Below, one piece after another: positions 3,230 to 63,929 of a stretch of 64,000 nucleotides of DNA. The translations under genes were made by a program, and so were the position numbers. Source of the DNA: Simkaniaceae bacterium. GTDB lineage: Bacteria; Chlamydiota; Chlamydiia; Chlamydiales; Simkaniaceae. The notes under the pieces are model-generated. The model saw nothing but the letters and a program-made list of their open reading frames with translations. It was not told the origin of the DNA and did not search any database. Location of the stretch: NCBI GenBank assembly GCA_050248615.1, contig JBFWSA010000005.1, positions 1,843 through 65,842 of the forward strand, given 5' to 3'. Positions within the stretch are counted from its first letter, which is position 1, and the number at the start of each line of letters is the position of its first letter.

Positions 3230-3263
3230 TATACTCAGACATTTTCAAAGTTGGTTGAGTATA
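3230..3263. repeat. short (34 bp) palindromic form of foldback family FB-A
   Basis: TATACTCAGACATTTTCAAAGTTGGTTGAGTATA is a degenerate joined-termini version of the 164-bp FB-A element. It ends 13 nt before the miaB ATG. Confidence 0.6.
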
Positions 3264-3275
3264 TAGGGAGCGACT

Positions 3276-4592
3276 ATGACAACTAAGCCAAAGACTTTCT
3301 TCGTTCGCACGTATGGGTGCCAAATGAATGAGCTCGATTCCGAAATCATGGTGGGGCAACTCGAAAAACGGGGGCTAAAACGGGTACATGATGAGTCGGA
3401 GGGAGACGTCCTTCTCTTTAATACCTGTTCCATTCGAGATCTTGCAGAACGCAAAGTGATGGGAAAAATTGGCCAAATCGGTCGCTCTAAGAAAAAACAG
3501 ATTATCGGGATCACGGGATGTATGGCAATGGCAAAAAAAGAGAGCCTCTTCCGGAAACTCCCCAATGTCGATTTTGTGATTGGTACGAATAATATCACCG
3601 ATTTGGACCTGATTTTAGATCAAGTGATCGAAACGGGGGAAAAACAAATCAAAACGGATGATCAATTTGAAGAAAATCTCAACTATTTAGTTGCCAAACG
3701 GGATGACAAATACAAAGCCCATGTCTCGATTATCCGTGGATGTGATAAGTTTTGTACCTATTGCGTCGTCCCCTACACGCGGGGGCAAGAGGTTTCTCGC
3801 CCTCCAGAGGATATCGAAAGAGAGTGTCGCCTCCTCGCTGAGCAAGGCTACAAAGAGATCACCCTTCTGGGGCAAAATGTCAATAGCTATGGAAAAGATA
3901 AACCCGAATGGCGCGAGCTCTTTCATGATCTTCTCTACCGCTTAGATAACATTGAGGGGATTGAGCGGATCCGTTTCATGACAAGCCATCCGATAGACAT
4001 CACTGTTGACCTCATGCAAGCGATCCGAGACCTCCCCTCTCTTTGTGAGTTTGTCCATTTTCCTATTCAAGCAGGATCCAACAGGATCTTAAAAAAGATG
4101 CACCGGATCTATACGAAGGAGCAATACTTCGAAAAAGTGGATCTTTTGAAAGAGATCGTCCCGAATGTGGCTCTTGGAACCGATATTATTGTAGGATTCC
4201 CCACCGAAACGGAAGAGGAATTCGAAGAGACCCTCGAAGTTTTCCGTCAGATTCGCTATTCGGTCGCTTTCCTCTATACCTATAGCCCCCGCAAAGGAAC
4301 TCCAGCCATGCGGTGGAAAGATGATATCCCCGAACAGATTAAAGAGGAGCGTTTACAAAGACTCATGGCCCTCCATGAATCGCTTTGCGCAGAAGAGCGT
4401 CAAGAGCTACTCGGCAAAGAGGTAGAAGTTTTAGTCGAGCGTCGCAATAGAGATGGTCAATTAAAAGGGCGGACCCGCTGCTGGAAAAAAGTCATTTTCC
4501 CGGGGGAAGAATCCCTCATTGGGACCCTACAAACCGTCAAACTACATAGCTTCAATCACCAAACGCTCATCGGAGAGGTTATACCGAAGTGA
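3276..4592 (+). CDS. miaB: tRNA-2-methylthio-N6-dimethylallyladenosine synthase (radical SAM methylthiotransferase)
   Basis: 438 aa. N-terminal TYGCQMNELDSE, radical-SAM CDKFCTYCVVPYTRG, C-terminal TRAM-like region. Confidence 0.9.
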   Translation: MTTKPKTFFVRTYGCQMNELDSEIMVGQLEKRGLKRVHDESEGDVLLFNTCSIRDLAERKVMGKIGQIGRSKKKQIIGITGCMAMAKKESLFRKLPNVDFVIGTNNITDLDLILDQVIETGEKQIKTDDQFEENLNYLVAKRDDKYKAHVSIIRGCDKFCTYCVVPYTRGQEVSRPPEDIERECRLLAEQGYKEITLLGQNVNSYGKDKPEWRELFHDLLYRLDNIEGIERIRFMTSHPIDITVDLMQAIRDLPSLCEFVHFPIQAGSNRILKKMHRIYTKEQYFEKVDLLKEIVPNVALGTDIIVGFPTETEEEFEETLEVFRQIRYSVAFLYTYSPRKGTPAMRWKDDIPEQIKEERLQRLMALHESLCAEERQELLGKEVEVLVERRNRDGQLKGRTRCWKKVIFPGEESLIGTLQTVKLHSFNHQTLIGEVIPK

Positions 4593-4606
4593 TGGCTCTT
4601 CGGGTA

Positions 4607-5221
4607 TTACATCATCAGCTCATGCCCTCGCTCGGGTTTTGGCCTAGCAAAACCTGCAAGGAAAAGTCCGACGAAAAACCATTGAACTACATAATCAGCC
4701 ATCATGACGAGTGTAAAACGATACCCCGCTCCAAACCAATTCCAATTGGGAACAAGAGCAATGATTCCGGCCAGCAATCCGATCATGGTGACAAAAAAGA
4801 GACGTCCTCCATAAGTCGTATCGATCATCTTCAACATGATAAAACTGACAAAAAATATAGCAACAAACTGCGTGAGAAATGAGTAGATGTAGGGAAGGGG
4901 GCTGCTCATATCCACCCCATTGACTCTCACCTGAGCAAAAACATAAGGACCTTTTTTGAGCGCTGCATCCTGCTGTTTCATCTCGCTTGAAATATCATCA
5001 GGCGTCACATGGAATTGATCTCCCTGAGCATAGGGGGCCATATAGACACCATCCTTCGTGACGTTTTCTTTAATGACCCAAGAAACAAACTCCTGATTCT
5101 GAAATTTATTGATCACTTCGTTATGCCAAGGAAGAACCATCCAGGAAACAAATCCCCAAACAAATGCGATAATCCCTCCAATAATTCCTGCAATAATTGA
5201 CTTAACCATGATAAACCTCAA
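4607..5221 (-). CDS. hypothetical integral membrane protein
   Basis: 204-aa ORF with several clear hydrophobic helices. No family recognised. Confidence 0.5.
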   Translation of the reverse strand: MRFIMVKSIIAGIIGGIIAFVWGFVSWMVLPWHNEVINKFQNQEFVSWVIKENVTKDGVYMAPYAQGDQFHVTPDDISSEMKQQDAALKKGPYVFAQVRVNGVDMSSPLPYIYSFLTQFVAIFFVSFIMLKMIDTTYGGRLFFVTMIGLLAGIIALVPNWNWFGAGYRFTLVMMADYVVQWFFVGLFLAGFARPKPERGHELMM

Positions 5222-5247
5222 AAATACTTTCTAGGGATGGTAGCGCT

Positions 5248-9433: not shown

Positions 9434-10327
9434 ATGAAAATCGAAAGCTCAGTGAGGCCTTATCTCACCCCACAAACCCTTGCATCTCTCCAGGAATTCT
9501 CGGTAAAACTCCCCCAGGTTTCTATAAAAAACGCCCCAGAGACTCTTCGAGCGATTAGCCCCCTTTTCCTTTACGAATCCCCCTATGATCCTACGGACTC
9601 CTTCATAGATAAGTGTATTAAAACGGTTGTCGCCTCTTTTAAGCTTTTCTCTTATTTCTTCCAAGAAACGCGTCAACTGATAGCCTTTCTTCCCCTTGTT
9701 AAAGAGATCAAACCCGCACTCGAAGCGGAAATCGAAAACTTGGAAAAAGAAGTTTTTTCCCTTCATAACGAAATGCTAGTGCCTGACCGCAAAAGTCCTT
9801 CATGGAATTTTTAGCGTCAAAGTTCCCGGGATTGAGCTGCCGAAAAGCACGCTGTATTAATGCAATACAGTGTACTTTTCGGCGGTTCAATCGCGGGTCT
9901 TTCACGCAAAAATTACTGCAAGGACTTTTGCGGTCAGGCACTAGATACCCTATTTATCATGGAGTATGAGGAAGAAATGTTAAAAGTACTTGGAGGGGAA
10001 TCCCCCACCCTTTCTAAGGAAGCCCTCTTCGAAAAATTTTTAGCATCCTATAGCGCTACTATGGCTGCCCGCAAATATGTCTACCACCAAGGGGAAAAGA
10101 GAGCACTTGATGATCAGGAGACCCAAGCAAAAATACTTGCTAGTTACAGAGAGCACCTTGAAGGGATTTTTGGCCGCCTAGAAGCCCTTCCTAAAGAATC
10201 TACGGAAACGGTCCAAAAAAGAATTCTTTTTGCACACGATCATATTGAGCGCTTGATCAAAAGAAAGACCCAACTCACAGAAACCTCTCAAGCAATCGCT
10301 GAGTTCCTAGAAAGCCCTTTACACTAA
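9434..10327 (+). pseudogene. hypothetical coiled-coil-like gene split by an FB-D foldback element
   Basis: ORFs 9434..9814 and 9860..10327 are in the same frame. The tail of the first (LVPDRKSPSWNF*) and the head of the second (...GQAL) are translations of the inserted element. Removing 165 bp joins ...HNEML to DTLFIMEYEEE. Confidence 0.7.
9777..9943. mobile_element. foldback MITE-like element, family FB-D (167 bp including terminal TA)
   Basis: TAGTGCCTGACCGCAAAAGTCCTT...AAGGACTTTTGCGGTCAGGCACTA; the arms are complementary over almost the whole length. It shares TAGTGCC termini and an AAAGTTCCCG(G/T)GATT block with the element at 39633..39775. Confidence 0.8.
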
Positions 10328-10367: not shown

Positions 10368-11306
10368 ATGAAAAACCTACTAAAGCTTCTCCTTCTATTT
10401 TTAGTATGTTACCTCCCCTTAGAAGCAAAAGAGTCCAAAAAGAAAGTCTGCTTCATTGTTAATCCTATCTCTGGAGTGGGGAAGCAAAAAAAAATTGAAA
10501 AGCTCATTAAACGCAATTTAAATCTCTCTGAGTTTTCTTACGAAGTTCATTATACAAAAAGACCGAAGCATGCTACCGAACTGAGCCATCGGGCCGTTTT
10601 AGAGGGGGCTCAGATCATCGTTGCTGTCGGTGGGGATGGGTCTGTTAATGAAGTTGCTCAAGGGATGATCGGCTCACAAGTTGCCCTTGCGATCATCCCA
10701 ACGGGATCGGGGAATGGCTTTGCCCGCTACTTTGATATCCCCACAGATCCGGCTGAAGCCATCCAAGTGATCAATGGAATGCATGACCAGTGGATCGATA
10801 CCGTGAAGATTAACCAAGAATCCTATATCGGCGTGGCCGGGATTGGGTTTGATGCAGATGTCAGCCTCGCTTTCTCAACCCTAGAAAAGCGGGGTCCCGC
10901 TTCTTACCTCCGGGTCATTCTCAGTGAACTTCCCAACTACAAACCCCAGAACTATGAGCTCGTTATTGATGGAAAACCTTACAAAGAAAAAGCCTTTTTA
11001 ATCTGTTTTGCGAACTCTAAGCAATATGGAAATAACGCCTTTATCGCCCCCAATGCTCAAATCGATGATGGCTTTTTAGATGTGATCATCTGGAAAGAGT
11101 TTCCTCCCCATGCGGCCCCCAAGCTCGTCCATGATCTCTTTACAAAACATCTGGGAGATTCAAAATATACCCAATCTTTCCGTTGCCAAGAGGTCATCCT
11201 CAAAAAACCGATGCATACCCTCCATATCGACGGCGAACCTATGGATTTTGATGAGGATGTCTACATCCGCATCCTCCCCTCCTCTCTCAAAATCATCACC
11301 CCTTAA
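10368..11306 (+). CDS. lipid kinase, diacylglycerol-kinase catalytic-domain family (YegS/BmrU-like), with N-terminal signal or anchor
   Basis: 312 aa. VCFIVNPISG and GGDGSVNEVAQGM motifs typical of the DAGK catalytic domain; hydrophobic N-terminus. Confidence 0.8.
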   Translation: MKNLLKLLLLFLVCYLPLEAKESKKKVCFIVNPISGVGKQKKIEKLIKRNLNLSEFSYEVHYTKRPKHATELSHRAVLEGAQIIVAVGGDGSVNEVAQGMIGSQVALAIIPTGSGNGFARYFDIPTDPAEAIQVINGMHDQWIDTVKINQESYIGVAGIGFDADVSLAFSTLEKRGPASYLRVILSELPNYKPQNYELVIDGKPYKEKAFLICFANSKQYGNNAFIAPNAQIDDGFLDVIIWKEFPPHAAPKLVHDLFTKHLGDSKYTQSFRCQEVILKKPMHTLHIDGEPMDFDEDVYIRILPSSLKIITP

Positions 11307-11428
11307 CCCTGATTTTCGACCCTATTATTGACAAAAATACCCTGAAAAACAACCCTGAATGGTGAAAATAACCCCTGATTTTCGACCATATATAGCTAAA
11401 GTTGTTTAAATCTCAATAAGAGTTTGGG

Positions 11429-12514
11429 TCACTTTTGAAAGCGATCTAGGGTATAAGTAGTCCCCGCAGAGAGCTGCAAAGGCGTCCCTACTTCATAGAC
11501 ACGTCCCCGATCTCGGGGCCCTTTACGCAGGCGGAACGACTTTAATGGAGATTGAAACTTTAAATAGCAGATCTGATCGGTTTGGGGATGTAGGGAGAGA
11601 CGCCGAATGAGCTTTTTCGTCCATTCGATATCTAGGGTCAAATCCTTGCATTCTACCCCGACAAAACGTCCTGCATGAAGCTCTACCGGAAGACAGGGGA
11701 GTAGGGAAAGCTTGTTTTCCTTCTGTTGAATAAAAAGCTGGCGGATCAGACGGGCCCCTTCCCCTAATAGCATTAAAGGGGATGCCTCCTGCGGAATTTC
11801 ATCTTGCTTAGAAAGAAACCCTTGGTAGTCGGTATCGATAAGTCTCGGGGTAAGTATCCCTTCGAACCCTGCACGAAAAAGACCGATTAAATGGAGTCCT
11901 ATCTCCTCCCGTTTTTTTTGGAGAGCAAGAGTCTCGCAGTGTTTTAGAAGGCGCGCTGTCCCCACATCGAGTTTGGGATGGGGAGGGATATTCTTCCCTA
12001 GCTCAAACCAAATCGGCAAAATCTCCTCAAGATTGAGGCGTCTTTTGACCAGGGTCCAATCTTGCGCTTTGTGACATCCAAAATGGATTTTTTCTTTCAG
12101 TATGTTTGGGAAAGAGCAAGAAGCACTCGGCATGATGAGCTCTTCTTTTCGCTTAAGAATGCGGGTCTCCCCTTCATAGGTAAAGGGAATCCCTTCTTTG
12201 GGGGCCCGTTCTAAAAATAGAATAACTTCATGAGCAGAGGCCACTAACCGATAAGAAAAATATCCTTGAGGCCCTTTCCCCAACACACGTACCCATTGCC
12301 TTTCCAAATCTTGCATCACCGTAAACTGACTTAAAGGTCCCTGGATCGCGCAAGTCACTAAAAAATGATCGCGGCTTCCCTCTGAAAGCAAATTTGTAAA
12401 CTCTATTTGCGTCGGGTAAGCTTTCACTTTCCAAGAACTTTTCGGCAATAGGCAGCTGGTGCCAACCTCATGCGAAAAGGGTCTGTACTTTTCTGTCAGT
12501 TTGATTTTCATCAT
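11429..12514 (-). CDS. hypothetical protein
   Basis: 361-aa ORF immediately downstream of mtaB, overlapping it by 47 nt if the annotated ATG is used. No family recognised. Confidence 0.5.
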   Translation of the reverse strand: MMKIKLTEKYRPFSHEVGTSCLLPKSSWKVKAYPTQIEFTNLLSEGSRDHFLVTCAIQGPLSQFTVMQDLERQWVRVLGKGPQGYFSYRLVASAHEVILFLERAPKEGIPFTYEGETRILKRKEELIMPSASCSFPNILKEKIHFGCHKAQDWTLVKRRLNLEEILPIWFELGKNIPPHPKLDVGTARLLKHCETLALQKKREEIGLHLIGLFRAGFEGILTPRLIDTDYQGFLSKQDEIPQEASPLMLLGEGARLIRQLFIQQKENKLSLLPCLPVELHAGRFVGVECKDLTLDIEWTKKLIRRLSLHPQTDQICYLKFQSPLKSFRLRKGPRDRGRVYEVGTPLQLSAGTTYTLDRFQK

Positions 12515-15079: not shown

Positions 15080-16370
15080 TAAGATATCCTTTGACTTTAT
15101 GCTCTAAAGCTGTGGGAATCTCCACCTCTAATAGCACATCATTTTCCTCATAATCTTGTGAAATCACCCGTCCTTCTTTCATCAGCTCGCTAATAATGGC
15201 GTAATCTTTTTGAGGAATGCAAAGCCTGACAATTTTACGTAAGGCTTTAAGGGCATCCATCATCATCTGCATGAGTTCATGAAAACCCTCCCCTGTCAGA
15301 GCAGAGATCCCTACTACACGGGGATACTTCAGCTTATAACGCCCTAAAATGCCCCGTTTCTCCACAAGATCGATTTTATTGAGAACGGTGATAATGGGTT
15401 TATCCTTTGCGCTGAGTTCCCGAAGAACTTCATAGGTCGATTCGGCATGCTCTTCTGCTAAAGGATGGTTCACATCGATTAAGTGGAGCAAAATATCGGT
15501 AAAAACGGCCTCTTCAAGGGTGCTTTTAAAGGCGGCAACGAGGGTATGGGGAATTTTTCTGATAAACCCTACCGTATCTACAAGTAAAATCTCTTGGTGA
15601 TTGGGAAGAGAAAACTTACGCGTCGTGGTATCGAGGGTTGCAAAGAGCTTATCTTCCACAAGAACATCGGCCTGTGTCAGAGCGTGTAAAAGGGTCGATT
15701 TCCCCACATTGGTATACCCTACAATCGCAAAGGTAGGAATGCCACTTCTCACGCGCGCTTGACGTTGCACCTCCCGCTGATGACGCACCTCTTCTATCTC
15801 TTTCTTGAGCTGTGAAATACGATCCCGCACAATCCGACGGTCGAGTTCGATCTGACGTTCCCCTTCCCCTTTAAGGAATCCTTTACCACTCGCTACTTGG
15901 CGTGAAAGGTGGGTCCAAAGTCTTTTTAAGCGGGGCAATTGATATTGGCTTTTGGCAAGCTCAATCTGGAGTTTGGCTTCTTTGGTTTGAGCTCTTTGGG
16001 AAAAAATCTCTAAAATTAGCTCTGTTCGGTCTATGACAGGGCGCTTAAAAATTTTCTCTAAATTGCGTTGTTGATTCGGTGACATTTCATCGTCAAAAAT
16101 CACGATATCTGCACCCAAATCTTCAGCTTTTTGTGAGAGCTCCTCTACTTTTCCACTTCCAAAAAAAGTTGCAGGATCTATCTTACGGATCGAACAGGCT
16201 TCTTTGCCGACAACCTCTAACCCATAGGTTTGAGAAAGAGCTTCTAGTTCATCTAAATGCTCTTTGCAAAGATTAAGTTCGGCTGTCCGCTGGTAGCCCC
16301 CTGCAAGGAGGGCCGTTTTGAGATCGGTAAGCTCATATTTAATGTCTTCGTAGAGTTTATCTTCTGTCAT
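15057..16370 (-). CDS. hflX: GTPase HflX
   Basis: 437 aa. HflX N-terminal domain; G1 GYTNVGKSTL, G3 DTVGF, NKID. Confidence 0.9.
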   Translation of the reverse strand: MTEDKLYEDIKYELTDLKTALLAGGYQRTAELNLCKEHLDELEALSQTYGLEVVGKEACSIRKIDPATFFGSGKVEELSQKAEDLGADIVIFDDEMSPNQQRNLEKIFKRPVIDRTELILEIFSQRAQTKEAKLQIELAKSQYQLPRLKRLWTHLSRQVASGKGFLKGEGERQIELDRRIVRDRISQLKKEIEEVRHQREVQRQARVRSGIPTFAIVGYTNVGKSTLLHALTQADVLVEDKLFATLDTTTRKFSLPNHQEILLVDTVGFIRKIPHTLVAAFKSTLEEAVFTDILLHLIDVNHPLAEEHAESTYEVLRELSAKDKPIITVLNKIDLVEKRGILGRYKLKYPRVVGISALTGEGFHELMQMMMDALKALRKIVRLCIPQKDYAIISELMKEGRVISQDYEENDVLLEVEIPTALEHKVKGYLIDVTENS

Positions 16371-17143
16371 AAAGGAATTTCCAGTCCATCGTAGGCGAGT
16401 GCAAATCCACTAGGCAGCTCTTGGGTTGTTGTTTCATGATGGATTTCATGAGAAATATGAGTGAAATAGGTCTTTTTCGCACCTGTTTTTTTTGAAAAGG
16501 CAATAGCTTCTTCAACACTTAAATGGGCCACCGATTTTTCCCAACGCCTGGCGCTGATAATGAGGGTTTCAATCCCCTTAAGGGATTCAAAAAGGCTCTC
16601 TCCATATTCCATAATATCGGTGACATAGGCTACATTCTTAAAACGAAAACCATTCACTTTCATCCCCACTTGAATATAAGAGAAATAACCTACTTTCAAT
16701 CCTTCAAAAGAGGTCTCTCCTTGATCTCCTTCCAAAACCTGAAATTTCAGTTTTGTTGCATGAATAGCATCTTTTTCATGCGGAGGAAGAAAATAGTGAT
16801 ACCGAATTTTTAGCTCATCCAAGGTCTCTCTAGAGAGTAAACAGGGAATGGGTTTCTTTTGCCGAAAGGTGTAAATGCGGAGTTCATCCAGTCCTGCAAT
16901 ATGATCATAATGGGTATGTGTCAAAAGGAGGGCATCGAGGGAATCAATGTGATGTCTAAGGGCTTGGTGACGAAAATCTGGACCACTATCTACTAAATAA
17001 CGTTTCCCTCCATGGATCAAAAGGATAGAGGGTCGGAGACGGTTATCTTTAGGATCATTGGACTTACAAACTTCGCACGAGCAACCGATGATAGGAACCC
17101 CCATCGACCCCCCCGATCCTAAAAATAAAAGACGATCTTTCAT
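16367..17143 (-). CDS. MBL-fold metallo-hydrolase (PhnP-like)
   Basis: HTHYDHIAGL metal-binding motif. The start MKDRLLFLGSGGS at 17143 forms an ATGA overlap with the upstream gene; the ORF itself is open to 17170. Confidence 0.8.
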   Translation of the reverse strand: MKDRLLFLGSGGSMGVPIIGCSCEVCKSNDPKDNRLRPSILLIHGGKRYLVDSGPDFRHQALRHHIDSLDALLLTHTHYDHIAGLDELRIYTFRQKKPIPCLLSRETLDELKIRYHYFLPPHEKDAIHATKLKFQVLEGDQGETSFEGLKVGYFSYIQVGMKVNGFRFKNVAYVTDIMEYGESLFESLKGIETLIISARRWEKSVAHLSVEEAIAFSKKTGAKKTYFTHISHEIHHETTTQELPSGFALAYDGLEIPL

Positions 17144-19017: not shown

Positions 19018-19181
19018 TATACTCAAACCAATTTAAAAGTTGGATTTTCGGCTGCGCCAAAGCACCGTAATTTGCTGATCTTACATGACCTCATATTTCT
19101 AATATTATGTCATGTAAGAACGACGAATTCCGAAAGTTTTCGCGTTGCCCCAAAACCAACTTTTAAATTGGCTTGAGTATA
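19018..19181. mobile_element. foldback MITE-like element, family FB-A (164 bp), inverted relative to the other copies
   Basis: TATACTCAAACCAATTTAAAAGTTGG...CCAACTTTTAAATTGGCTTGAGTATA. The interior matches the reverse complement of copies 24193, 26200 and 41651. Confidence 0.85.
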
Positions 19182-19401: not shown

Positions 19402-19839
19402 ATGGAATTAGATGGTATTATTGAAAAAGCTCCTAAAGGGAAATATTGGGTTATCGAAATTGCAGCTCTAGAACTTATGACTCAAGGAACAAGTAGAAAA
19501 AATGCTTTTTCTATGATTCAAGATGCCGTTCTCGAACTCATAGAATCTTATTTTGGCAAAACGGTTCGAAAAGCTTTAAAACTCTCTATCTATGAACATG
19601 GAAATGAAGGTTTTGGGTTAAGTAGCAATAATAATAAGATTCTTCTCTCTTTAGCCTTAAAAAGGCAAAGAGAGATTAGTGGATTAACAATTAGAGAAGC
19701 AGCTTTGAATTTAGGTTCTAAGTCTCCAAATTCCTACTCTCAATATGAAAAAGGAAAAATCAATATCTCTTTAGATAAATATGAACTGCTTCTTTCTGCC
19801 GCAAACCCTCAGACTACTTGTAGTCTTCGCCTAGGTTGA
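19402..19839 (+). CDS. hicB: HicB-like antitoxin with C-terminal HTH domain
   Basis: N-terminal HicB-like fold (YWVIEIAALELMTQGTSRKNAFSMIQDAV). C-terminal XRE-type HTH (LTIREAALNLGSKSPNSYSQYEKG). GAGGG lies 6 nt before the ATG at 19402, directly after the hicA stop. Confidence 0.7.
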   Translation: MELDGIIEKAPKGKYWVIEIAALELMTQGTSRKNAFSMIQDAVLELIESYFGKTVRKALKLSIYEHGNEGFGLSSNNNKILLSLALKRQREISGLTIREAALNLGSKSPNSYSQYEKGKINISLDKYELLLSAANPQTTCSLRLG

Positions 19840-19852
19840 TTCCAGACGGATC

Positions 19853-19887
19853 TATACTCAAACAACTTTTGAAGTTGGTTGAGTATA
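19853..19887. repeat. short (35 bp) palindromic form of FB-A
   Basis: TATACTCAAACAACTTTTGAAGTTGGTTGAGTATA is nested inside a second inverted repeat (TCCAGACGG...CCGTCTGGA). It lies 14 nt after the hicB stop. Confidence 0.7.
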
Positions 19888-19914: not shown

Positions 19915-20534
19915 CTAAAAAGTAACTTGTGCGGCTAATGAAGTCCTGGCCGACTCCAGTTCACTCTCTACTGTGGATGAGTCATCGGGAGTCTGATCGG
20001 CATAGTTGACATTGTTGTAATACCCCATCCCAAATCCCAAGGATGTATAATAGTCGTTGCAAAAGCCAGACGATTCTCCATTCATGGTATGGATCGCATT
20101 TGTTAAGTCGGTATTGGCACTTAAGGCGGGATAACTCGCTAAAACACTGTTTAACGCGAATTCGAGAATAGGTCTCTATGAGAAGGTTTAGATTTTTGAA
20201 GAGATTTTCAGAAAAATCTGCGAAAGAGATAGCCAAAGCGCTATCTTCGAGCAGTTTTGCCTGGAAAGATCACAAAAAGATAGACGTTCTCATAGAGATC
20301 TAATCCCGAATTTGCGTTGTTTAGCCTATTGAGTGCCTCTCCGATCACCAGTCCGACATTATTGCTGATCCATTCTGTTTTTTCGTAGGAATGGCCATCT
20401 CCTGCATCGATTAAATGATCTCCTAGAGACTTCCGATTCGCCCAAGCTTGTTTAAAGGCGCTTTCCGCATCAGATAGTTGCCCTTCTGCTGCATAGTATT
20501 TCTGTAATACTGGTGGTGGTAGTGGTTGTGACAT
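19915..20534 (-). pseudogene. hypothetical ~149-aa gene split by an FB-B foldback element
   Basis: The N-terminal part MSQPLPPPVLQKYYAAEG...GEALNRLN runs into the element. An unlisted frame downstream reads SVLASYPALSANTDLTNAIHTMNGESSGF...AAQVTF*. Deleting 170 bp (164-bp element plus one copy of TGTTTA) restores one frame. GGGGGA RBS before the ATG at 20534. Confidence 0.7.
20154..20317. mobile_element. foldback MITE-like element, family FB-B copy A (164-bp core)
   Basis: ACGCGAATTCGAG...CGAATTTGCGT, flanked by the direct repeat TGTTTA (20148..20153 and 20318..20323). The central ~100 bp is near-identical to copy B at 62723..62886. Confidence 0.85.
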
Positions 20535-24150: not shown

Positions 24151-24192
24151 CCTTCCTATTATGGATTAAATTATGAAAGCTTTCGCGTTGCC

Positions 24193-24356
24193 TATACTCA
24201 AACAACTTCAAAAGTTGGTTTTGGGCTAGCGCGAAAGCTTTCGGAATTCGTCGATCTTAAATGACCTAATATTAGAAATATGAGGTCATTTAAGATCGGC
24301 AAATTACGGTGCTTTGGCACAGCCGAAAATCCAACTTTTGAAGTTGTTTGAGTATA
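24193..24356. mobile_element. foldback MITE-like element, family FB-A (164 bp)
   Basis: TATACTCAAACAACTTCAAAAGTTGG...CCAACTTTTGAAGTTGTTTGAGTATA. Its arms pair over nearly the full length. It is flanked on both sides by fragments of an older FB-A copy. Confidence 0.9.
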
Positions 24357-24409
24357 AAACCAACTTTTGAAGTTTTTGAATCGTAAATCCTTTAACTCGA
24401 GATAGGTTC

Positions 24410-24895
24410 ATGGAAGGGAAAACACCTGCAGTCACTGCAATTCATGATCATACTTACCGGATCTTTCCCAATGACCTGAACGCGCAAGGGACGGTCTTTG
24501 GAGGGCTCATCATGGCAGAAGCCGATCGCTTAGCCCATATCGTGGCGGAAAGACATAGCAGCCGGATCTGCGTGACGGCTTCGGTCGACTCTATTGTCTT
24601 TCATGCCCCAGCAGGGCATGGAGATAATTTAATTTTCCAAACCTCCATCAACCGTTCTTGGCATAGCTCGATGGAAGTCGGGGTAAAAGTCACCGCTGAA
24701 GAACGCCTGACATTAGAGCGCAAGCATATTGCCTCAGCCTATCTCACCTTTGTTGCTTTAAATGATCATGGCAAGCCTGTCTCCGTACCACCTGTCCTTC
24801 CTGAATCTGAAGAGGAAAAGCGTCGCTTCAATGAAGCAGATTTGCGCAGAAAAAACCGGATTTCTCTTAAAAAACAAAAATTAGAACTTAGCTAG
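24410..24895 (+). CDS. acyl-CoA thioesterase (hotdog fold, YciA-like)
   Basis: 161 aa. PNDLNAQGTVFGGLIMAEADRLA motif. The stop TAG is formed with the first bases of the next element. Confidence 0.8.
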   Translation: MEGKTPAVTAIHDHTYRIFPNDLNAQGTVFGGLIMAEADRLAHIVAERHSSRICVTASVDSIVFHAPAGHGDNLIFQTSINRSWHSSMEVGVKVTAEERLTLERKHIASAYLTFVALNDHGKPVSVPPVLPESEEEKRRFNEADLRRKNRISLKKQKLELS

Positions 24896-25055
24896 ATAGT
24901 GTCGTCATGAGATGGACATTTAAGAAGTGGCTCCTATGAGGAAATTTCAAGGCGACCGATGGAGAAAGCCTAAATGGGGCTTTTGAAGCAGGTCAACGAT
25001 GAAATTTTCCATAGGAGCCACTTCTTAAATGTCCATCTCATGACGACACTATCTA
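24893..25055. mobile_element. foldback MITE-like element, family FB-C (163 bp including terminal TA)
   Basis: TAGATAGTGTCGTCATGAGATGGACATTTAAGAAGTGGCTCCTATG... has its perfect ~45-nt inverse at the other end. Single copy in this window. Confidence 0.65.
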
Positions 25056-25064: not shown

Positions 25065-25228
25065 GAACCTATCCAGTATTTAAGATATTTTTTTATTCCA
25101 CGCTTTTTGGCATCTTTTCCATTTTCATTTTGACCTCTTGTCTCATGGACAATGTGATCAAAATGAAAATGGAAAGTCTGTTCAAAAATCGAAGAAATCA
25201 AATAAATCCTTAAATACTGGATAGGTTC
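25065..25228. mobile_element. foldback MITE-like element, family FB-E (164 bp)
   Basis: GAACCTATCCAGTATTTAAG...CTTAAATACTGGATAGGTTC. An internal CCATTTTCATTTTGA block is also inverted. Single copy in this window. Confidence 0.65.
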
Positions 25229-26577
25229 TTGATAAAAGGCCAACTTTTAGAAAACAGCATCATATCAAAGTAAACCCCGTTATCCCAAAACTGGTGATTT
25301 GTTATGCTTGTTTTTAGCTGAGCCATGACGCTATTTCCATCATCTTCATGGTCTATATAACTCTCCATAATGGCTTGCCCTACTTGGATTAAATGGGCAA
25401 GAGTCTCTCCATGCAAGCTCGTAAAGCCAGCATTTTCTAACCCTTGCAAAGCGACAAGATAAGCACCTACCGTAGCAAATTGATTCCGATCTCCAAAAAT
25501 GCTCACTCCATTGTTACCAAACCAGCTTGGATTAGGATCATAATGGATGGTAATTGTCCCTGCATTAAAGGCAGCTTCCATAACAGCGTTTAATAAATCT
25601 CCTGCATCTTTATAAAAGGAAGACCCTTTGTGATCTGAATTAGAAAGGAAGTTTCCAAGATACAAGATCGATCGAACAAGGGAAGCATTGTTATCGGGAG
25701 TTCCTTGATTTGTAGCTAAATCCTGAGCAGCATTCAGTTCATGCGCAATATAGCTCAGGGTTGCTTTTTGAATTTTTTCCCCTTCAAGGGTTTTCCCCTT
25801 CTGATTGCAATAGTCAATAATGGTTTGAACTGCATCAAAATCAACATAATCGTAAAAAACCCCCATCGGATTGTTCCAAACGGTGTCATTAGCCCCCCAG
25901 TGATTGCCTGGAGTCCATTCTCCACTTGCGGTGATATCTCCATTCACAAGTCCTTCAATCCCCTTATCGATAAGAGGTGTTAAAAAATCTGCTAGCGTTT
26001 CAAAAACAGAAGCTCCTTGGATCAGAGCACCTAGTGCCATAATATCTGCGTCCAATGCAGACCCTTTATCAACAATGGAAACTTGACATCCCGATGTTAC
26101 ATTATAGGCCCAAGGAATAAGTCCATCATCAAGCCCTTGGTTAGCAAGAAAAGCATATCCATTTGCTAAACCCGTAAAAAGTTCTTGATTTAGCGAACTT
26201 ATACTCAAACAACTTCAAAAGTTGGTTTTGGGCTAGCGCGAAAGCTTTCGAAATTCGTCGATCTTAAACGACCTAATATTAGAAATATGAGGTCATTTAA
26301 GATCGGCAAATTACGGTGCTTTGGCGCAGCCGAAAATCCAACTTTTGAAGTTGTTTGAGTATACAGCATAACTGAGCATCATCCCCATCGCTTCAGACGT
26401 ACAGTTACTTTGACCATTTCCCCCAACCGGAAATATTCCGCTTGTCGTACTTTGACAAAGAGTCGTTTGATTCACAACGATTTCCTCAGCAAAAGGAAAG
26501 GGATGATAGTCATAAGAAAACAGAAGTGCTTGAGTACATAGAAAAAGATAAAAAGATAATTTTTTGTTTCGTAACAT
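25210..26577 (-). pseudogene. glycoside hydrolase family 8-like (endoglucanase/chitosanase type) gene interrupted by FB-A
   Basis: ORFs 26311..26577 (signal peptide ... TSEAMGMMLSYAV, cf. the GH8 SEGQGYGM Glu motif) and 25210..26208 (ALDADIMALGALI, cf. the GH8 Asp signature) share one frame. They are separated by the 164-bp element. The last 5 codons and the stop come from FB-E. Confidence 0.65.
26200..26363. mobile_element. foldback MITE-like element, family FB-A (164 bp) inside the GH8 gene
   Basis: Near-identical to 24193..24356 in the same orientation. TATA at both ends; net insertion 162 bp if TA is the duplicated target. Confidence 0.9.
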
Positions 26578-34014: not shown

Positions 34015-34049
34015 TATACTCAAACAACTTCAAAAGTTGTTTGAGTATA
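34015..34049. repeat. short (35 bp) perfect palindromic form of FB-A
   Basis: TATACTCAAACAACTTCAAAAGTTGTTTGAGTATA. It encodes the last 9 codons and the stop of the GH1 gene on the minus strand. Confidence 0.8.
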
Positions 34050-35633: not shown

Positions 35634-35649
35634 TAAGCGTTGTGGAAAA

Positions 35650-39632: not shown

Positions 39633-39775
39633 TAGTGCCCCGTCATGAAAATTCTTAATGTTTGGGCTGACGTGAAAGTTCCCGTGATTTGTCGAATACA
39701 GCTAACCTTAAGATCGACAAAGCTCGGGATTTTGATGCAGCCGAAACATCAATCATTTTCGTGACGGGGGCACTA
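39633..39775. mobile_element. foldback MITE-like element, family FB-D (143 bp including terminal TA)
   Basis: TAGTGCCCCGTCATGAAAATTCTTAATGTTTGGGCTG...CAGCCGAAACATCAATCATTTTCGTGACGGGGGCACTA. Its last three bases are the complement of the typA stop codon. Confidence 0.75.
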
Positions 39776-41650: not shown

Positions 41651-41814
41651 TATACTCAAACAACTTCAAAAGCTGGTTTTGGGCAAGCGCGAAAGCTTTC
41701 GGAATTTGTTGATCTTAAGTGACCTAATATTAGAAATATGAGGTCAATTAAGATCGGTAAATTACGGTGTTTTGGCGCAGTCGAAAATCCAACTTTTGAA
41801 GTTGTTTGGGTATA
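41651..41814. mobile_element. foldback MITE-like element, family FB-A (164 bp)
   Basis: TATACTCAAACAACTTCAAAAGCTGG...CCAACTTTTGAAGTTGTTTGGGTATA, in the same orientation as 24193 and 26200. It lies between the divergent typA and trkH genes. Confidence 0.9.
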
Positions 41815-41850: not shown

Positions 41851-43401
41851 ATGCAACATTTTAGGCAAAAAATTCATTGGCAAGCGATCCTCGGGCAGAT
41901 GGGGCTCCTACTCCATGTCCCCGGATGCATGGCTTGGATAACAGTGGGGATTTGCTCTCTTTTCCAAGAATGGGATGCCATCCTCCCTTTTGGTGTGACA
42001 GGAGCCCTAGGGATAGGTCTAGGCCAAATTTTGTACCGCGGAAGCCTAAAAGCCCAAGAGGCTCACCTTTGGGATGCCATGGTCATTGCAGCCTTGGGAT
42101 GGATTTTTTGCTCTTTCCTTGCAGCCATCCCTCTTTATTGGGTTTGCCATATACAATTGGCTCAAGGGGTAGAATCCGAAGTGATGCGCGTCTTTTCCCA
42201 CCCCATCAACGCCCTATTCGAAGGTTTTTCAGGTTATACCAGTACAGGCCTTACGATGATGCAACGGGAAGGTCCCTTTCCCCATTGCCTTGAGTGGTGG
42301 CGCTCCTTCTTACAATGGACTGGAGGATTAGGTCTCGTTGTTTTTGTCCTCGCCCTTACCCACCTGAATAAGGAGGGATACCAACTTTATTATGCCGAAG
42401 CACATTCGGAACAAATGTCACGCAATATTAGACAAACAGCTCACCGGATATGGGCGATTTATCTCTGTTACACTTTTGTGGCCTTTCTCCTTTTTTTCAG
42501 TGCAGGGATGCCCCTTTGGGAAGCGATTAACCACGCCATGACAGCCATCTCTACGGGAGGATTTACCGTGACCTCCACGAACTTTCAGGGCTATTCTGCC
42601 GGCATTCAAATCATTGCCCTACTTATCATGGTGATCGGATCTATTAGCTTTGCAGTGCATTTTCAAGTGATCCACGATCGCAACTTGAAAATACTGTGGA
42701 AAAGCCTCCAACACCGCCTTCTCTATCTCTTCGTGATAGGGGGAGGAATTCTCACCCTTCTCCTCAACTTGTGGAATGGAAGTCAAGGGCACTACATGGG
42801 CTCAATTTTTGAGTGGGTCTCAGCCCTCACAACTTGCGGTTATAACGCTGTTTCTCTCTCTTTTTTTAGCCCCATGGTCAAACTTTTGCTCATCATCGGT
42901 ATGTTTATGGGAGGAGCTACAGGTTCTACGGCTGGAGGATTAAAAATCCGCCGCCTCCTTTACCTTGTCAAAGGCATTTACCTTCGCCTCTCTTCCCTAA
43001 CACAAAAAAACGAAAAAGAAATTTTAGAAGAATATAATCCCGCAAAATCTCCCTCTCAAGAAGAACCGCCCGGAACCCTCCTGTTACGCAAAACGCAAAG
43101 TGAGCGGTTAATCACGGCAGAAGTTCTTTTCTCACTCTGGGCTGCAACCATTTTTTTAGGATGGTTTCTGATTTTAAAGTGGACTCCTAAGGGAGGAGCT
43201 CTAGATGCCCTTTTTGAGGTGACCAGTGCTATGAGCAATGTAGGGCTCAGTAGTGGCATTGTTAGCCCCGATTTCTCTACAGCAGGAAAGATTATTTTTA
43301 TGTTGTTGATGTGGGTGGGAAGGCTAGAAATAATTCCCGCACTCGTGTTACTTTTAACTTTACCAATGACGCTTAGAAATAATACCATTTCTGAAAAATA
43401 A
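41851..43401 (+). CDS. trkH: TrkH/KtrB-family potassium uptake membrane protein
   Basis: Polytopic, with repeated pore-loop-like segments (SGYTSTGLTM, AISTGGFTV, ALTTCGYN, MSNVGLSSG). The ATG at 41851 is chosen because the longer ORF begins inside the FB-A element. Confidence 0.85.
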   Translation: MQHFRQKIHWQAILGQMGLLLHVPGCMAWITVGICSLFQEWDAILPFGVTGALGIGLGQILYRGSLKAQEAHLWDAMVIAALGWIFCSFLAAIPLYWVCHIQLAQGVESEVMRVFSHPINALFEGFSGYTSTGLTMMQREGPFPHCLEWWRSFLQWTGGLGLVVFVLALTHLNKEGYQLYYAEAHSEQMSRNIRQTAHRIWAIYLCYTFVAFLLFFSAGMPLWEAINHAMTAISTGGFTVTSTNFQGYSAGIQIIALLIMVIGSISFAVHFQVIHDRNLKILWKSLQHRLLYLFVIGGGILTLLLNLWNGSQGHYMGSIFEWVSALTTCGYNAVSLSFFSPMVKLLLIIGMFMGGATGSTAGGLKIRRLLYLVKGIYLRLSSLTQKNEKEILEEYNPAKSPSQEEPPGTLLLRKTQSERLITAEVLFSLWAATIFLGWFLILKWTPKGGALDALFEVTSAMSNVGLSSGIVSPDFSTAGKIIFMLLMWVGRLEIIPALVLLLTLPMTLRNNTISEK

Positions 43402-43526
43402 AATCGCATTTGGCAAGGAGGCAGCACAAATTTTTGTATCTGGAGCGAGCGACCATTGCCCAGCGGCAAGGCGCGAGTGAAGACTAAAAATTTGTTGCTA
43501 AGTCGACATAGTCAAATGCGACTTTA
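43399..43526. mobile_element. foldback MITE-like element, family FB-F (128 bp including terminal TA)
   Basis: TAAAATCGCATTTGGCAAGGAGGCAGCACAAATTTTTGT...ACAAATTTTTAGTC...CAAATGCGACTTTA with imperfect full-length arms. Its first three bases are the trkH stop TAA. Single copy in this window. Confidence 0.55.
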
Positions 43527-57575: not shown

Positions 57576-57642
57576 AAAAAATATTGATTAATAATCCCTA
57601 AATCTTACAGACTTGCAGCCTTTCAAAAAATAAGGACCACTT

Positions 57643-61999: not shown

Positions 62000-62002
62000 T
62001 CT

Positions 62003-62701
62003 ATGGATAATGTCGCCGTAAAATGTGAAAAAATTCATAAATCCTTCGGAGAAGGAGCCCTCCGTTTTGAAGTCCTCCATGGGGTCAACCTAGAGGTAAA
62101 ACGGGGAGAGCTGCTCATGTTAGTGGGCCCTTCAGGTTCGGGGAAAACGACATTGATCTCTATTATCGCGGGCATTCTTGGCTACGACGCAGGAGAGTGC
62201 ACGATTTTTGGCCACAATCTCAATACCCTATCCGACGCAGAAAAAACCATCTTTCGGGGAAAAAATCTGGGGTATGTTTTCCAAGCATTCAATCTTATTC
62301 CCATGCTTTCCAATGCCGAAAACGTTTCTATTCCTCTTCTCTTAAATGGAGTCGAGCGCCTAGAAGCTCTCAGGCAAGCCAAAGAGCGCTTAGAACAATT
62401 TGGTTTGGGGGATAAAACCAACACCTATCCTAACGAGTTATCAGGAGGGCAGCAACAGAGAGTTGCCATCGCACGCGCTGTGATTCATAACCCTGATCTC
62501 ATCGTCTGTGACGAACCTACCAGCGCTTTAGACCACGAAAATGGAACCCTTGTGCTCAAACATTTGCGTGAAATTGTCACTAAAGAAAACCGCGCCCTGA
62601 TCGTCGTCACCCATGACTCCCGCATTTTTGAATTTGCCGACCGTATCGTTCACATGGAAGATGGGGTCATCACAGAAACCAAAGAAAATCACAACCACTA
62701 A
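62003..62701 (+). CDS. ABC transporter ATP-binding protein (DevA/MacB/LolD type)
   Basis: 232 aa. Walker A GPSGSGKTT, signature LSGGQQQR, Walker B LIVCDEPTSALD. Confidence 0.95.
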   Translation: MDNVAVKCEKIHKSFGEGALRFEVLHGVNLEVKRGELLMLVGPSGSGKTTLISIIAGILGYDAGECTIFGHNLNTLSDAEKTIFRGKNLGYVFQAFNLIPMLSNAENVSIPLLLNGVERLEALRQAKERLEQFGLGDKTNTYPNELSGGQQQRVAIARAVIHNPDLIVCDEPTSALDHENGTLVLKHLREIVTKENRALIVVTHDSRIFEFADRIVHMEDGVITETKENHNH

Positions 62702-62722
62702 CGCACAATGCGGGTTATTTTA

Positions 62723-62886
62723 ACGCGTATTCTGACTTAAATCTTTATCAAAAGGATTAGATTTTTGATGAGATTTTCAGAAAAATCTGCGAAGGAGATA
62801 GCCAAAGCGCTATCTTCGAGCAGTTTTTCCTGAAAAGATCGCAAAAAGATAGCCCTTTTCATAAAGATTTAAGCCAGAATACGCGT
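62723..62886. mobile_element. foldback MITE-like element, family FB-B copy B (164-bp core, TA on both flanks)
   Basis: ACGCGTATTCTGACTTAAATCTTTATCAAAAGG...CCTTTTCATAAAGATTTAAGCCAGAATACGCGT. The central block GATTTTTGATGAGATTTTCAGAAAAATCTGCGAAGGAGATAGCCAAAGCGCTATCTTCGAGCAG matches copy A. Confidence 0.85.
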
Positions 62887-63929
62887 TACTTGAGCCCGGT
62901 GCAAGTAAACCAGTCAAAAATGGCGTAATTATTATCTCCATCATTGTGGGCAGCGAAAACTCCTGTGGGATAATGAGGAGGGATGGGAAGAGCGGTGGAG
63001 GCAATGCCATCACTGCGCCACACATCATGGAGGGCAAAGGATTTGATAAATTTATTCTTTCCTTCCCGGTTATACACCTTAAAGGTGGAGTCTCCTTGAC
63101 TAGAGACAACGATATATCCTTTACGATTGGGTTTGCGGTAGATAGATAACCCTTCCCGGTCTCCACGAATATTATCTTGGACTCCAAACATTTGGATGAA
63201 AGGATCTTTCCCAACGGAAGGATCGGCAAAGTATTTCAAAATGGCATGTCTTTCATCGGAACAGTAAAAATACCCCCATTCATCATCCGCTACCATCCCT
63301 TCAACAAAACTCTTTTGATCTTTCTTCCCAAACTTGCGAACAATGGTCCCTTTAAACTTTCCCGTTCCATCATCTTCAAGCATAATCTGATGAATATTGT
63401 CTGTCTCTTTCCGTGAAAGAAAAGCAAAAAGCTGTCCATCAGATAGACGTTTGTACAAGCAAATCCCGTAGGTTCTGTCGGGAAATCCAGAAGAGATTCC
63501 ACCAAGCGTTGTAATATCAATGAGTTTGCGCGTCTCTTTATCCATCTTGAAAATTTTCATCTCATTGGTGCTCCGTATCCCACACGCCACCACATCGATC
63601 ACCTCCCCTCCAAGATTGACATCATAACGGACACTGACCCCTACAGGACGATTGAGGCGCTCGGAACGACTTACCTGCTTACCACTCATATCAAACACAT
63701 AGAGAGCTCCCATAGGAGCTTTATCATTGCAAATAAGAACACTATTGATCGGGTTATCACGATCTGCCCAAATAGCCACTTCATCTGCCCTTCCAGGAAG
63801 AGAGCGGGTCTTGGCTCGAGAACGGGCCCCTTCTCTTGTGGCACGATGCCGAAAATCTGCGCACCCCACAAAAAAAAGGGGAAGAAGGAGTATCCAAAAA
63901 GGAATTAAAGACGTTTTCTTGCGATCCAT
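62886..63929 (-). CDS. beta-propeller phytase (3-phytase) lipoprotein
   Basis: 347 aa. Lipobox LFFVGC. ADEVAIWADRDNP, VEGMVADDEWGYFYCSDE and REGLSIYRKPNRKGYIVVSSQGDSTFKVYNREGKN match the Bacillus PhyC-type BPP blocks. Confidence 0.85.
   Translation of the reverse strand: MDRKKTSLIPFWILLLPLFFVGCADFRHRATREGARSRAKTRSLPGRADEVAIWADRDNPINSVLICNDKAPMGALYVFDMSGKQVSRSERLNRPVGVSVRYDVNLGGEVIDVVACGIRSTNEMKIFKMDKETRKLIDITTLGGISSGFPDRTYGICLYKRLSDGQLFAFLSRKETDNIHQIMLEDDGTGKFKGTIVRKFGKKDQKSFVEGMVADDEWGYFYCSDERHAILKYFADPSVGKDPFIQMFGVQDNIRGDREGLSIYRKPNRKGYIVVSSQGDSTFKVYNREGKNKFIKSFALHDVWRSDGIASTALPIPPHYPTGVFAAHNDGDNNYAIFDWFTCTGLK

Follow-up and report, generated by a model that had tools for sequence, protein, structure and literature searches.

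Whole-length hairpin elements of the MITE kind, inserted at TA and recently active, in an uncultured Simkaniaceae bacterium

Duplication of TA is characteristic of, though not strictly exclusive to, the IS630/Tc1-mariner group, and it is to the IS630 family that the partner IS elements of RUP and Nezha belong, the terminal inverted repeats (TIRs) of RUP being shared with IS630-Spn1. Correia elements also duplicate TA, and YPAL, an enterobacterial MITE of ERIC type, is an imperfect whole-length palindrome of ~167 bp. The TIRs of Nezha are shared with ISNpu3 (PMC3184786), RUP copies form clusters and invade other repeats (PMC3184786, PMC10969869) and Correia transcripts fold to long hairpins (PMC10969869). 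No Chlamydiae are among the MITE hosts treated in two reviews (PMC10969869, PMC3184786), nor did we find a Chlamydiota MITE in the searchable literature; the type of mobile DNA described here is ordinary, its phylum an unreported host in that literature.

The window analysed, a stretch of 64,000 nt of DNA from an uncultured chlamydia-like bacterium of the Simkaniaceae, contains hairpins (FB elements) that are recently active and of the same known kind as Correia, RUP, Nezha and ERIC-like elements. Our analysis supports their reading as TA-duplicating, non-autonomous MITEs, and the best explanation, to which we assign a probability of about 0.82, is that they are TA-inserting hairpin MITEs moved in trans by an IS630/Tc1-mariner-type transposase encoded elsewhere. 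A preliminary description had located 11 palindromic elements, in each of which the left half is the reverse complement of the right, and 11/11 are indeed present: an inverted-repeat search recovered inverted arms for 9/11 (ungapped arms of 33-47 nt, 80-100% complementary), missing D2 and FB-F, both with more mismatches and indels, and folding with RNA parameters turned each of the 11 into a hairpin of nearly full length, at -50 to -114 kcal/mol. When the entire 64-kb window was scanned by folding sliding 170-nt segments with DNA parameters, 11 peaks below -32 kcal/mol (range -35.5 to -68.3) were the only extreme hairpins, the background having a median of -15.5 (robust sd 4.2) and the shuffled sequence a minimum of -29.6 kcal/mol. 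Because these peaks correspond to the catalogued elements (FB-E merging with the adjacent FB-C peak) plus a new locus at 19853-19887, and lie well below the shuffled minimum, the list of hairpins is complete in essence and its entries are far from anything expected by chance. The TIRs reach the very ends of the elements which, as is usual for MITEs, are smaller than ~500 bp (124-164 bp for the elements proper) and have no transposase coding capacity.

The FB-A copies A1 to A4 are 85-98% identical in pairwise comparisons. A1 (19018..19181, minus strand; 164 bp with both TAs counted) has the opposite orientation to A2-A4, is the oldest-looking copy, with 85-90% identity to the others, and is found in both strain clusters; A4 (41651..41814, plus strand) lies between the divergent genes TypA/BipA and TrkH and was found in every strain with a contig reading through the site. 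A2 (24193..24356, plus strand) and A3 (26200..26363, plus strand) are recent polymorphic insertions, and identity to A2 is 98% for the polymorphic A3 versus 93% and 89% for the fixed A4 and A1, respectively. Beyond the elements already listed, we found one relic half-copy of FB-A, in whose arm A2 is nested (left part 24175..24192, GAAAGCTTTCGCGTTGCC; right part 24357..24379, AAACCAACTTTTGAAGTTTTTGA), and three FB-A minis reduced to their tips, all fixed in the strain comparison: a degenerate one of 34 bp (3230..3263), one of 35 bp (19853..19887) in the loop of a hairpin with a 12-bp stem (GATTCCAGACGG / CCGTCTGGAATC) and one of 35 bp (34015..34049) with a 16-bp stem and a 3-nt loop.

The two FB-B copies, B1 (20152..20319) and B2 (62721..62888), both on the plus strand, are 84% identical and 168 bp long (including TAs in B2), and the right TA of B2 is included in the TAA stop codon of a minus-strand phytase-like gene. 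FB-C (24893..25055; 163 bp, with 46-nt perfect arms) is the sole full copy found, next to one partial match, 80% identical, in L032; its left TA together with a G forms the TAG stop of a 4HBT gene. D1 (9777..9943; 167 bp including TAs) is a recent polymorphic insertion with two more copies at unrelated loci (L037 and L014), while D2 (39633..39775; 143 bp), which combines D-type tips with an FB-A-like interior, is present in all strains seen and supplies the TAG stop of typA with its right end. FB-E (25065..25228; 164 bp), from which a 401-aa gene takes its final five codons and its stop, is flanked by TT...TT and at a second locus (L017) by AA...AA. FB-F (43399..43526; 128 bp), followed by a T-run, matches, at ~75% identity, the inner part of a 164-bp element with FB-A-type tips (L056) and, judged from this likeness, is probably an old, now tip-less relative of such an element. 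Neighbouring genes incidentally gain stop codons and C-terminal codons from FB elements; most copies are intergenic, several abut stop codons, and both orientations occur, including between divergent genes. Directly outside the window lies a seventh hairpin family, with a 12-bp direct repeat.

Tips differ strongly by family (TATACTC, TAACGCG, TAGATAG and TAGTGCC), and D1 and D2 give no blastn alignment, having only tips and a short core in common. The six sequence families of the preliminary description gave way to a different picture: the FB families are a mosaic superfamily with common tips or interiors, not six independent lineages. Its count of seven copies of exactly 164 bp holds for FB-A measured with both TAs, but its FB-B coordinates exclude the TAs (168 bp with them); under a uniform definition the elements proper measure 160 (A), 164 (B), 159 (C), 163 (D1), 164 (E), 139 (D2) and 124 bp (F), the common length of 164 bp arising partly because boundaries were chosen inconsistently. 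Similarly, the statement that TA stands at both ends of every element save FB-E is right about FB-E, with its TT/AA flanks, and wrong about B1, which has TA at its left end and TG at its right end.

Two strain clusters, ~100% versus ~99.3% identical, were compared over ~60 kb, and 4/4 indels of at least 25 bp between them involve FB elements, which account for every large structural difference observed among strains that co-occur in this Simkaniaceae population. Orthologous loci of sister strains, proposed earlier as a check on mobility, revealed clean presence/absence with TA duplication. At A3 the empty site GCGAACT-TA-CAGCATA corresponds to the filled site GCGAACT-TA[160]TA-CAGCATA, and at D1 the empty site GAAATGC-TA-GATACCC is filled with TA[163]TA; TA is single when the site is empty and duplicated when it is filled, the insertion at TA with 2-bp duplication that marks MITEs dependent on IS630/Tc1-mariner transposases. 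A2 is missing from 9 other assemblies, with a net gain of 162 bp as at A3, and the empty alleles (9/9) have AA where TA is expected; one extra substitution must therefore be assumed, which is plausible because the left flank of A2 is only 98.2% identical between strains versus 99.75% for the right flank. Filled versus empty orthologous sites were also found for a strain-specific FB-A at TA 25566-25567 (L011) and for an FB-B copy confined to the other strain (L078). Targets are T-rich at positions -1 and -2 and, as a whole, have a symmetric T-rich/A-rich context.

These insertions disrupt genes. A3 lies after codon 72 of the 401-aa gene, which is intact in L058 and L059, and D1 splits a 242-aa gene whose ORF is intact elsewhere; the net insertions of 162 and 165 bp are multiples of three, and both bring stop codons and split the ORFs. 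An assignment to the Rickettsia palindromic elements (RPE) was rejected on this ground, ORFs being split and not kept open. Elements also insert into one another, as seen for A2 inside the relic FB-A and for an FB-A inside FB-E in L014.

A search for more copies, likewise suggested beforehand, found them at many unrelated loci in the same and related organisms. FB-A has at least 17 non-redundant full-length copies (16 distinct loci) and 17 minis of 35 bp, and its tip pattern has matches in 48 metagenome contigs and 4 species-representative genomes, with 89 distinct outer flanks; deleted forms of 44-90 bp retain both tips. Copies at other loci were found for D1, FB-E and FB-B as well. High-identity copies at unrelated loci, as expected of a MITE, are established for these elements; for FB-C, D2 and FB-F, each with a single full copy, we infer mobility from architecture and mosaic relatedness only.

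No transposase was found among the Pfam matches on called genes over ~78 kb (contig positions ~43.9-121.9 kb; contig of GCA_050187435.1), in agreement with the earlier proposal that the elements are non-autonomous and without a transposase nearby. The enzyme is probably of the IS630/Tc1-mariner family, because that family characteristically duplicates TA, and the link draws on this trait together with a single IS630-family IS, that of L006, a related Chlamydiae MAG that also has a mini FB-A. This IS, the sole match in tblastn searches of ~550 kb of (redundant) sequence with 120 IS630 proteins, is 1155 bp long and has perfect 27-nt TIRs that start TATACTG; its TIR (TATACTGCCGTCGG...) and that of FB-A (TATACTCAAACAAC...) have only the first 6 nt (TATACT) in common.

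That the MITEs are moved by a transposase outside the IS630/Tc1-mariner group, by family-specific enzymes or by a partner now gone from the genome is the alternative that survives best, and we consider it possible, if rather unlikely. It would account for the finding that no IS with TIRs matching any FB family was detected in the ~550 kb of (redundant) sequence, for the strong differences between families in the nucleotides after the TA (TACTC, ACGCG, GATAG and GTGCC) and for the TT/AA flanks of FB-E and the 12-bp direct repeat of the neighbouring hairpin family, and, in view of the latter two, transposition may run through two or more systems. On the other hand, the 2-bp duplication of TA, clean at both A3 and D1, and the symmetric target context are hallmarks of IS630/Tc1-mariner, and the IS with the TATACT tip in the related MAG belongs to that very family.

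Compensatory double changes were observed in 6 pairs and 11 cells; shuffled controls gave 2.0 ± 1.2 and 2.0 ± 1.3, respectively, and slid registers 0-1. This upkeep of complementarity may reflect selection for a hairpin at the DNA or RNA level, or hairpin-internal repair. Along with the mostly intergenic position of copies, several of them abutting stop codons, and the T-run after FB-F, it is what functional, non-mobile spacers such as bidirectional terminators, mRNA stabilisers, RNase III sites or small RNA genes would display. Yet we judge such a function in place of mobility to be very improbable, given the presence/absence polymorphism among ~99% identical strains, the insertions within coding genes, the nesting and the occurrence of both orientations, even between divergent genes. 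Moreover, terminator- and promoter-like sites round the element cluster are at chance level only, and Rfam matched two tRNAs only, the FB elements corresponding to no known RNA family. Some old, fixed copies may have been secondarily co-opted; FB elements mainly behave like selfish DNA.

We give still less credence to REPIN/REP-like or IS200/IS605-PATE-like hairpins mobilised as ssDNA by an HUH tyrosine transposase (RAYT or TnpA), despite the whole-length hairpin architecture, the abundance of 35-bp, REP-sized hairpin minis and the mini inside the loop of another hairpin, for HUH transposition makes no target-site duplication such as that of TA at A3 and D1, true TIRs extend out to the element ends with no GTAG or CGTC tag at the tips, and no Y1/RAYT Pfam match was obtained over ~78 kb of contig. 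Membership in the REPIN/REP-RAYT group was rejected on the same three counts. That the palindromes arose artificially in assembly or amplification is next to impossible, since identical elements, loci and sequence recur in independent assemblies (NCBI MAGs, JGI, ENA and Logan) and filled and empty alleles each occur in several of these, even if short-read contigs often end within elements and L018 and L035, with one common flank only, suggest occasional repeat-induced chimeras.

If FB elements are TA-inserting MITEs mobilised in trans, a transposase encoded elsewhere, putatively of the IS630/Tc1-mariner family, would bind the TIRs and cut the element out, insertion would take place at TA in an AT-rich context of roughly TT-TA-AA, and fill-in of the staggered cut would leave TA at either side. 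With time, centres would be lost to yield 35-90-bp forms retaining both tips, sub-families would swap tips and interiors to form a mosaic superfamily, and compensatory changes would maintain complementarity over the whole element.

Among known systems, REPINs (REP doublets mobilised by RAYTs) resemble FB elements as whole-length hairpins and genome-internal replicating units (PMC3116915), but differ in having no target duplication, no true TIRs, a conserved tetranucleotide tag and a single-copy RAYT partner. Stowaway MITEs of plants and animals, which are Tc1/mariner-derived, resemble FB elements in that they duplicate TA, insert into AT-rich targets, could fold into hairpins over their whole length, fall into multiple sub-families and originate by internal deletion (PMC3814204, PMC5172404); their hosts are eukaryotic, and a sequence relationship to FB is not expected. 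The comparison with Neisseria Correia elements (CREE/NEMIS) made in the preliminary description is apt as an analogy by architecture, not as family membership: these elements are likewise small (~100-160 bp) with long inverted repeats, and they reside in a host without a known transposase and disrupt genes in a strain-specific manner (PMC10969869), but they belong to another phylum and their complementarity is confined to TIRs of ~26 bp, whereas that of FB elements extends almost to the centre. Neither an IHF site nor an outward promoter was detected at FB elements, a weak test with the promoter scan at chance level. RUP of Streptococcus pneumoniae and Nezha of cyanobacteria are, like FB elements, TA-flanked MITEs; they measure 107-170 bp, are predicted to form highly stable hairpins and were inferred to be mobile from a comparison of filled and empty sites among close relatives (PMC3184786, PMC10969869). 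They have identified partner IS elements, whereas for FB-A there is only the IS630-family IS of another MAG, matching over 6 nt at the tip. Finally, ERIC resembles FB elements in being a whole-length imperfect palindrome (~127 bp) with 5'-TA-3' at both termini and in its frequent location at gene 3' ends (PMC3184786), but ERIC is ancient and largely immobile across species, whereas several FB copies are polymorphic within one population.

We confirmed the presence of the eleven foldback elements, mostly TA-flanked and of at least six families (FB-A to FB-F), that a preliminary description had proposed for the window: an inverted-repeat search recovered nine of them in place, with ungapped inverted arms of 33-47 nt that are 80-100% complementary, and all 11 fold over nearly their full length. 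D2 and F escaped this search because they contain more mismatches and indels. As a chance test independent of the earlier list, every 170-nt segment of the 64 kb was folded with DNA parameters, giving a background median of -15.5 kcal/mol (robust sd 4.2), a minimum of -29.6 kcal/mol for shuffled sequence and eleven peaks between -35.5 and -68.3 kcal/mol. These peaks correspond to the listed elements (with E and the adjacent C merged) and to a single new locus, 19853-19887, and shuffles never reached such values. The list is thus close to complete, and its signal lies far beyond chance. The density is about one element per 4-5 kb, or ~3% of the window. When each element was compared with the window by BLAST, identity was 85-98% within FB-A and 84% between the FB-B copies, and no alignment was obtained between D1 and D2. 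A1 is inverted relative to A2-A4, and the four full FB-A copies, being few and in mixed contexts, were uninformative about orientation relative to transcription. A common ~160-bp format holds, but the "exactly 164 bp" reported for seven elements arose in part from inconsistent boundaries, as the elements proper measure 160 (A), 164 (B), 159 (C), 163 (D1) and 164 bp (E).

Four items had been overlooked: three mini FB-A elements of 34-35 bp made of the two tips only (3230-3263, 19853-19887 and 34015-34049), the first of which explains the start coordinate given for the whole population, and a relic half FB-A into which A2 (24193-24356) is inserted. The second of these minis (35 bp) precisely fills the loop of a hairpin with a 12-bp stem (GATTCCAGACGG / CCGTCTGGAATC; 19838-19904) just downstream of the HTH_3 gene. 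This outer hairpin may act as a terminator or be what is left of a different hairpin element.

FB-A also exists at many other loci. An exact 22-base FB-A tip pattern matched four of 185,579 species-representative genomes (two labelled Chlamydiia/Chlamydiae and two MAGs, mostly at contig ends), which confines the family to this lineage. In metagenomes the pattern matched 48 contigs, which yielded 17 non-redundant full-length sequences (163-164 bp, 16 distinct loci), 17 minis that are exactly 35 bp long and a few others of 44-90 bp that keep both tips and lack different central stretches. Deletion between short direct repeats in the tips (CAACTT or AAGTTG) would leave precisely the 35-bp form. 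All FB-A copies are bounded by TATA...TATA, and their outer flanks (89 distinct in total) show no mutual relationship. Copies at other loci were likewise found for D1, E and B, and C, D2 and F are single full copies. A 35-bp mini (L018:1150-1379) and a 163-bp full element (L035:1553-1910) on two fetched contigs were rejected as alleles of one locus, as they share one flank only, running up to the FB-A tip, and differ on the other side; this pair is probably a repeat-induced assembly chimera or a product of recombination between copies.

The six proposed families are not independent: their tips and interiors are mosaic. D2 joins D-type tips to an FB-A-like interior, and a 164-bp element from another assembly (L056) joins FB-A tips to an FB-F-like interior, so that F seems to be a relative without tips. 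D1 has its tips and a short core in common with D2, and B and E are weakly similar. Shared descent within a single reticulate superfamily is therefore the best explanation for the common size. Across the 17 full-length FB-A copies, 97.2% of cells form standard pairs, and compensatory double changes occur in tips and interior at 6 pairs (11 cells), compared to 2.0 ± 1.2 pairs and 2.0 ± 1.3 cells in shuffles and 0-1 in slid registers, a count that leaves out a variable pair visible in the alignment at columns 70/96 and that exceeds the number of independent events, since some changes are common to alleles of one locus. Mismatches and bulges are also conserved in all copies. The compensatory changes may reflect selection on a DNA or RNA hairpin, or repair within the extruded hairpin. 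In a more far-reaching reading, these would be the first active MITEs documented in the Chlamydiota, and their whole-length hairpin would itself be selected rather than a by-product, through transposition via, or stabilisation as, a single-stranded DNA hairpin or through RNA-level action (RNase III targets, terminators) in an intracellular bacterium; new sub-families would form when body modules and tip modules (the part recognised by the transposase) are exchanged and the ~160-bp hairpin format is kept. We consider this combination unlikely. Rfam at the gathering threshold assigned the hairpins to no family and matched in the window only two adjacent tRNA genes (35560-35722, minus strand). 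Promoter- and terminator-like sites around the A1-A3 cluster, the densest, occurred at chance level and so give no evidence of promoter or terminator function; read inward, but not outward, the TATACT tips score as -10 boxes. We favor, at a probability of about 0.82, that the FB elements are MITEs that duplicate TA, are still active and are moved in trans by a transposase, probably one of IS630 type.

That the elements move is evident from allelic comparisons. The window is 100% identical to positions 52819-116818 of JBFWXM010000007.1 (MAG GCA_050187435.1), whose proteins bear the NCBI label "Simkaniaceae bacterium" (phylum Chlamydiota), and the same species-level population is present in many independent assemblies (NCBI, JGI, ENA, Logan) that form two strain clusters with ~100% and ~99.3% identity to the window. 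Tiling the window with flanking-protein look-ups gave allelic contigs from other strains, and the indels of at least 25 bp between the clusters over ~60 kb number four, all involving FB elements. At A3 (26200-26363), the empty allele reads GCGAACT-TA-CAGCATA and the filled one GCGAACT-TA[160 bp]TA-CAGCATA; at D1 (9777-9943), GAAATGC-TA-GATACCC is replaced by ...TA[GTGCC...163 bp...GGCAC]TA.... A2 is missing from nine assemblies, with the same net gain as A3 (162 bp), and its empty alleles have AA in place of the expected TA; here one substitution must be assumed, which is plausible because the left flank is 98.2% identical between strains versus 99.75% for the right. The fourth indel is an FB-B copy carried by the other strain only (contigs L078/L079), with a DAGK-like gene upstream (window ~11306-11429); no junction from which to read a target duplication exists for the L078 copy, the whole intergenic segment being replaced. 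The window version of this segment (11307-11428) is entirely different and contains two copies of CCCTGATTTTCGACC, 78 nt apart. A further strain from ENA (L011) has an additional FB-A at the TA at 25566-25567.

Such presence/absence polymorphism in sister strains (A2, A3, D1 and others) identifies mobile DNA rather than ancient structured spacers, and an assembly or amplification artefact is ruled out, as filled and empty alleles each occur in several independent assemblies. FB elements are thus demonstrably still moving. The copies also show an age structure: A2 and A3, which at 98% identity are the closest pair of full copies, are both polymorphic; A4 (41651-41814) and A1 (19018-19181), 93% and 89% identical to A2, are both fixed; and all three window minis are fixed in both strain clusters. 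It therefore appears that a copy first inserts, is next fixed or lost, and finally decays from its centre.

Several insertions affect genes. Two other assemblies (L058, L059) have an intact 401-aa ORF that A3 interrupts behind codon 72 in the window strain, leaving ORFs of 88 and 332 aa. The L011 insertion is at a second site in the same gene, and FB-E supplies its last five codons and stop. This gene (25210-26577, minus strand), without a Pfam hit and with independent FB-A insertions in two strains, appears dispensable and decaying. D1 interrupts, at about codon 115, a 242-aa ORF of which four assemblies have an intact version, and four neighbouring genes have stop codons that overlap TA ends of elements (C, F, D2 and B2). 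The net insertions of A3 and D1 are multiples of three, yet both bring stops, so the elements behave unlike the Rickettsia palindromic elements.

No transposase had been noticed in the window, and indeed none was found among precomputed Pfam hits on called genes over ~43.9-121.9 kb of the contig, nor when the contig view was extended by ~9 kb upstream and ~15 kb downstream. ORFs beside lone FB-A termini on metagenome contigs proved to be ordinary genes (MFS, AbiE toxin-antitoxin, Legionella_OMP). A mini FB-A is also present in another Chlamydiae MAG (L006), which contains an IS of 1155 bp. This IS has 27-nt TIRs that match perfectly (TATACTGCCGTCGGCCTGAAACTTTGA) and encodes a frameshifted transposase with an HTH_33 domain and a DDE_3-type C-terminus, whose relatives carry PF13358, one being named "IS630 family transposase". 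When reconstructed from the frameshifted ORF and searched against 5.8 billion proteins, this transposase gave thousands of matches, all of at most 48% identity and none attributable to this organism, and tblastn of 120 listed IS630 relatives against all fetched DNA found L006 only. This IS is nested in a second inverted-repeat pair (TATAGTGGACCCC..., 162-186 and 1758-1782, 76% complementary, ~1.6 kb apart), whose tip is similar to that of FB-D (TAGTGCC).

Duplication of TA is characteristic of the IS630 family (e.g. ISY100), and RUP and Nezha are linked to IS630-family elements. T at the two positions outside the TA has a frequency of 0.48-0.52 versus a background of 0.28, indicating a symmetric, AT-rich target. 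Together with the TA duplication and the L006 relative, this makes an IS630-type partner fairly likely. The L006 TIR, however, shares only its first six bases with FB-A, and the other fetched DNA contained no IS630-like coding sequence, so the assignment is an inference. A REPIN or IS200/IS605 origin was rejected, since such elements make no target duplication and are without true TIRs, and no Y1 transposase is nearby.

Two neighbouring features were also recorded. A seventh hairpin of ~156 bp (-73 kcal/mol; L097:749-904, GCA_050180875.1) lies ~9 kb past the right end of the window, at the 3' end of a Peptidase_S9 gene; it is without similarity to FB-A to FB-F, present in a window-like strain and absent from a contig of another (L098), and has on either side a 12-nt direct repeat (TGTGTTAATAAC), of which L098 carries one copy. 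So long a duplication suggests a transposition system different from that of the TA-type elements. L098 in turn has a strain-specific 1393-bp segment (16360-17752; lacking in the window strain, intergenic ~57576-57642) with a gene for an AAA_14/DUF4143 ATPase (411 aa), a mini FB-A near one end and a flanking 8-bp direct repeat (TTTTTAGG).

All the large structural differences observed between co-occurring strains are due to FB elements, which also inactivate genes strain-specifically and remodel gene 3' ends. Their palindromes fragment short-read MAGs of this lineage, as contigs end inside them, and they are ready markers for strain typing. Classical Chlamydiaceae have few mobile elements. The system is suited to studies of the behaviour of IS630-type elements and their MITEs in bacteria with an obligate intracellular life. 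Reviews of MITEs leave Chlamydiae unmentioned (PMC3184786, PMC10969869), and a Rhabdochlamydia genome paper discusses IS elements and does not describe MITEs (PMC9997750). Reports of chlamydial MITEs were not found in the literature searched, of which coverage was incomplete, and no Simkania paper stood among the top 20 matches listed; we provisionally regard the FB elements as the first active MITEs in the phylum Chlamydiota. The mechanism is ordinary, that of expected selfish DNA rather than a new one. The closest analogues are bacterial MITEs with flanking TA and long hairpin folds, namely Correia, RUP, Nezha, ERIC and YPAL: Correia elements disrupt genes strain-specifically and have no known transposase, RUP and Nezha show nesting and filled and empty sites, and ERIC and YPAL are whole-length palindromes with TA at both ends (PMC3184786, PMC10969869).
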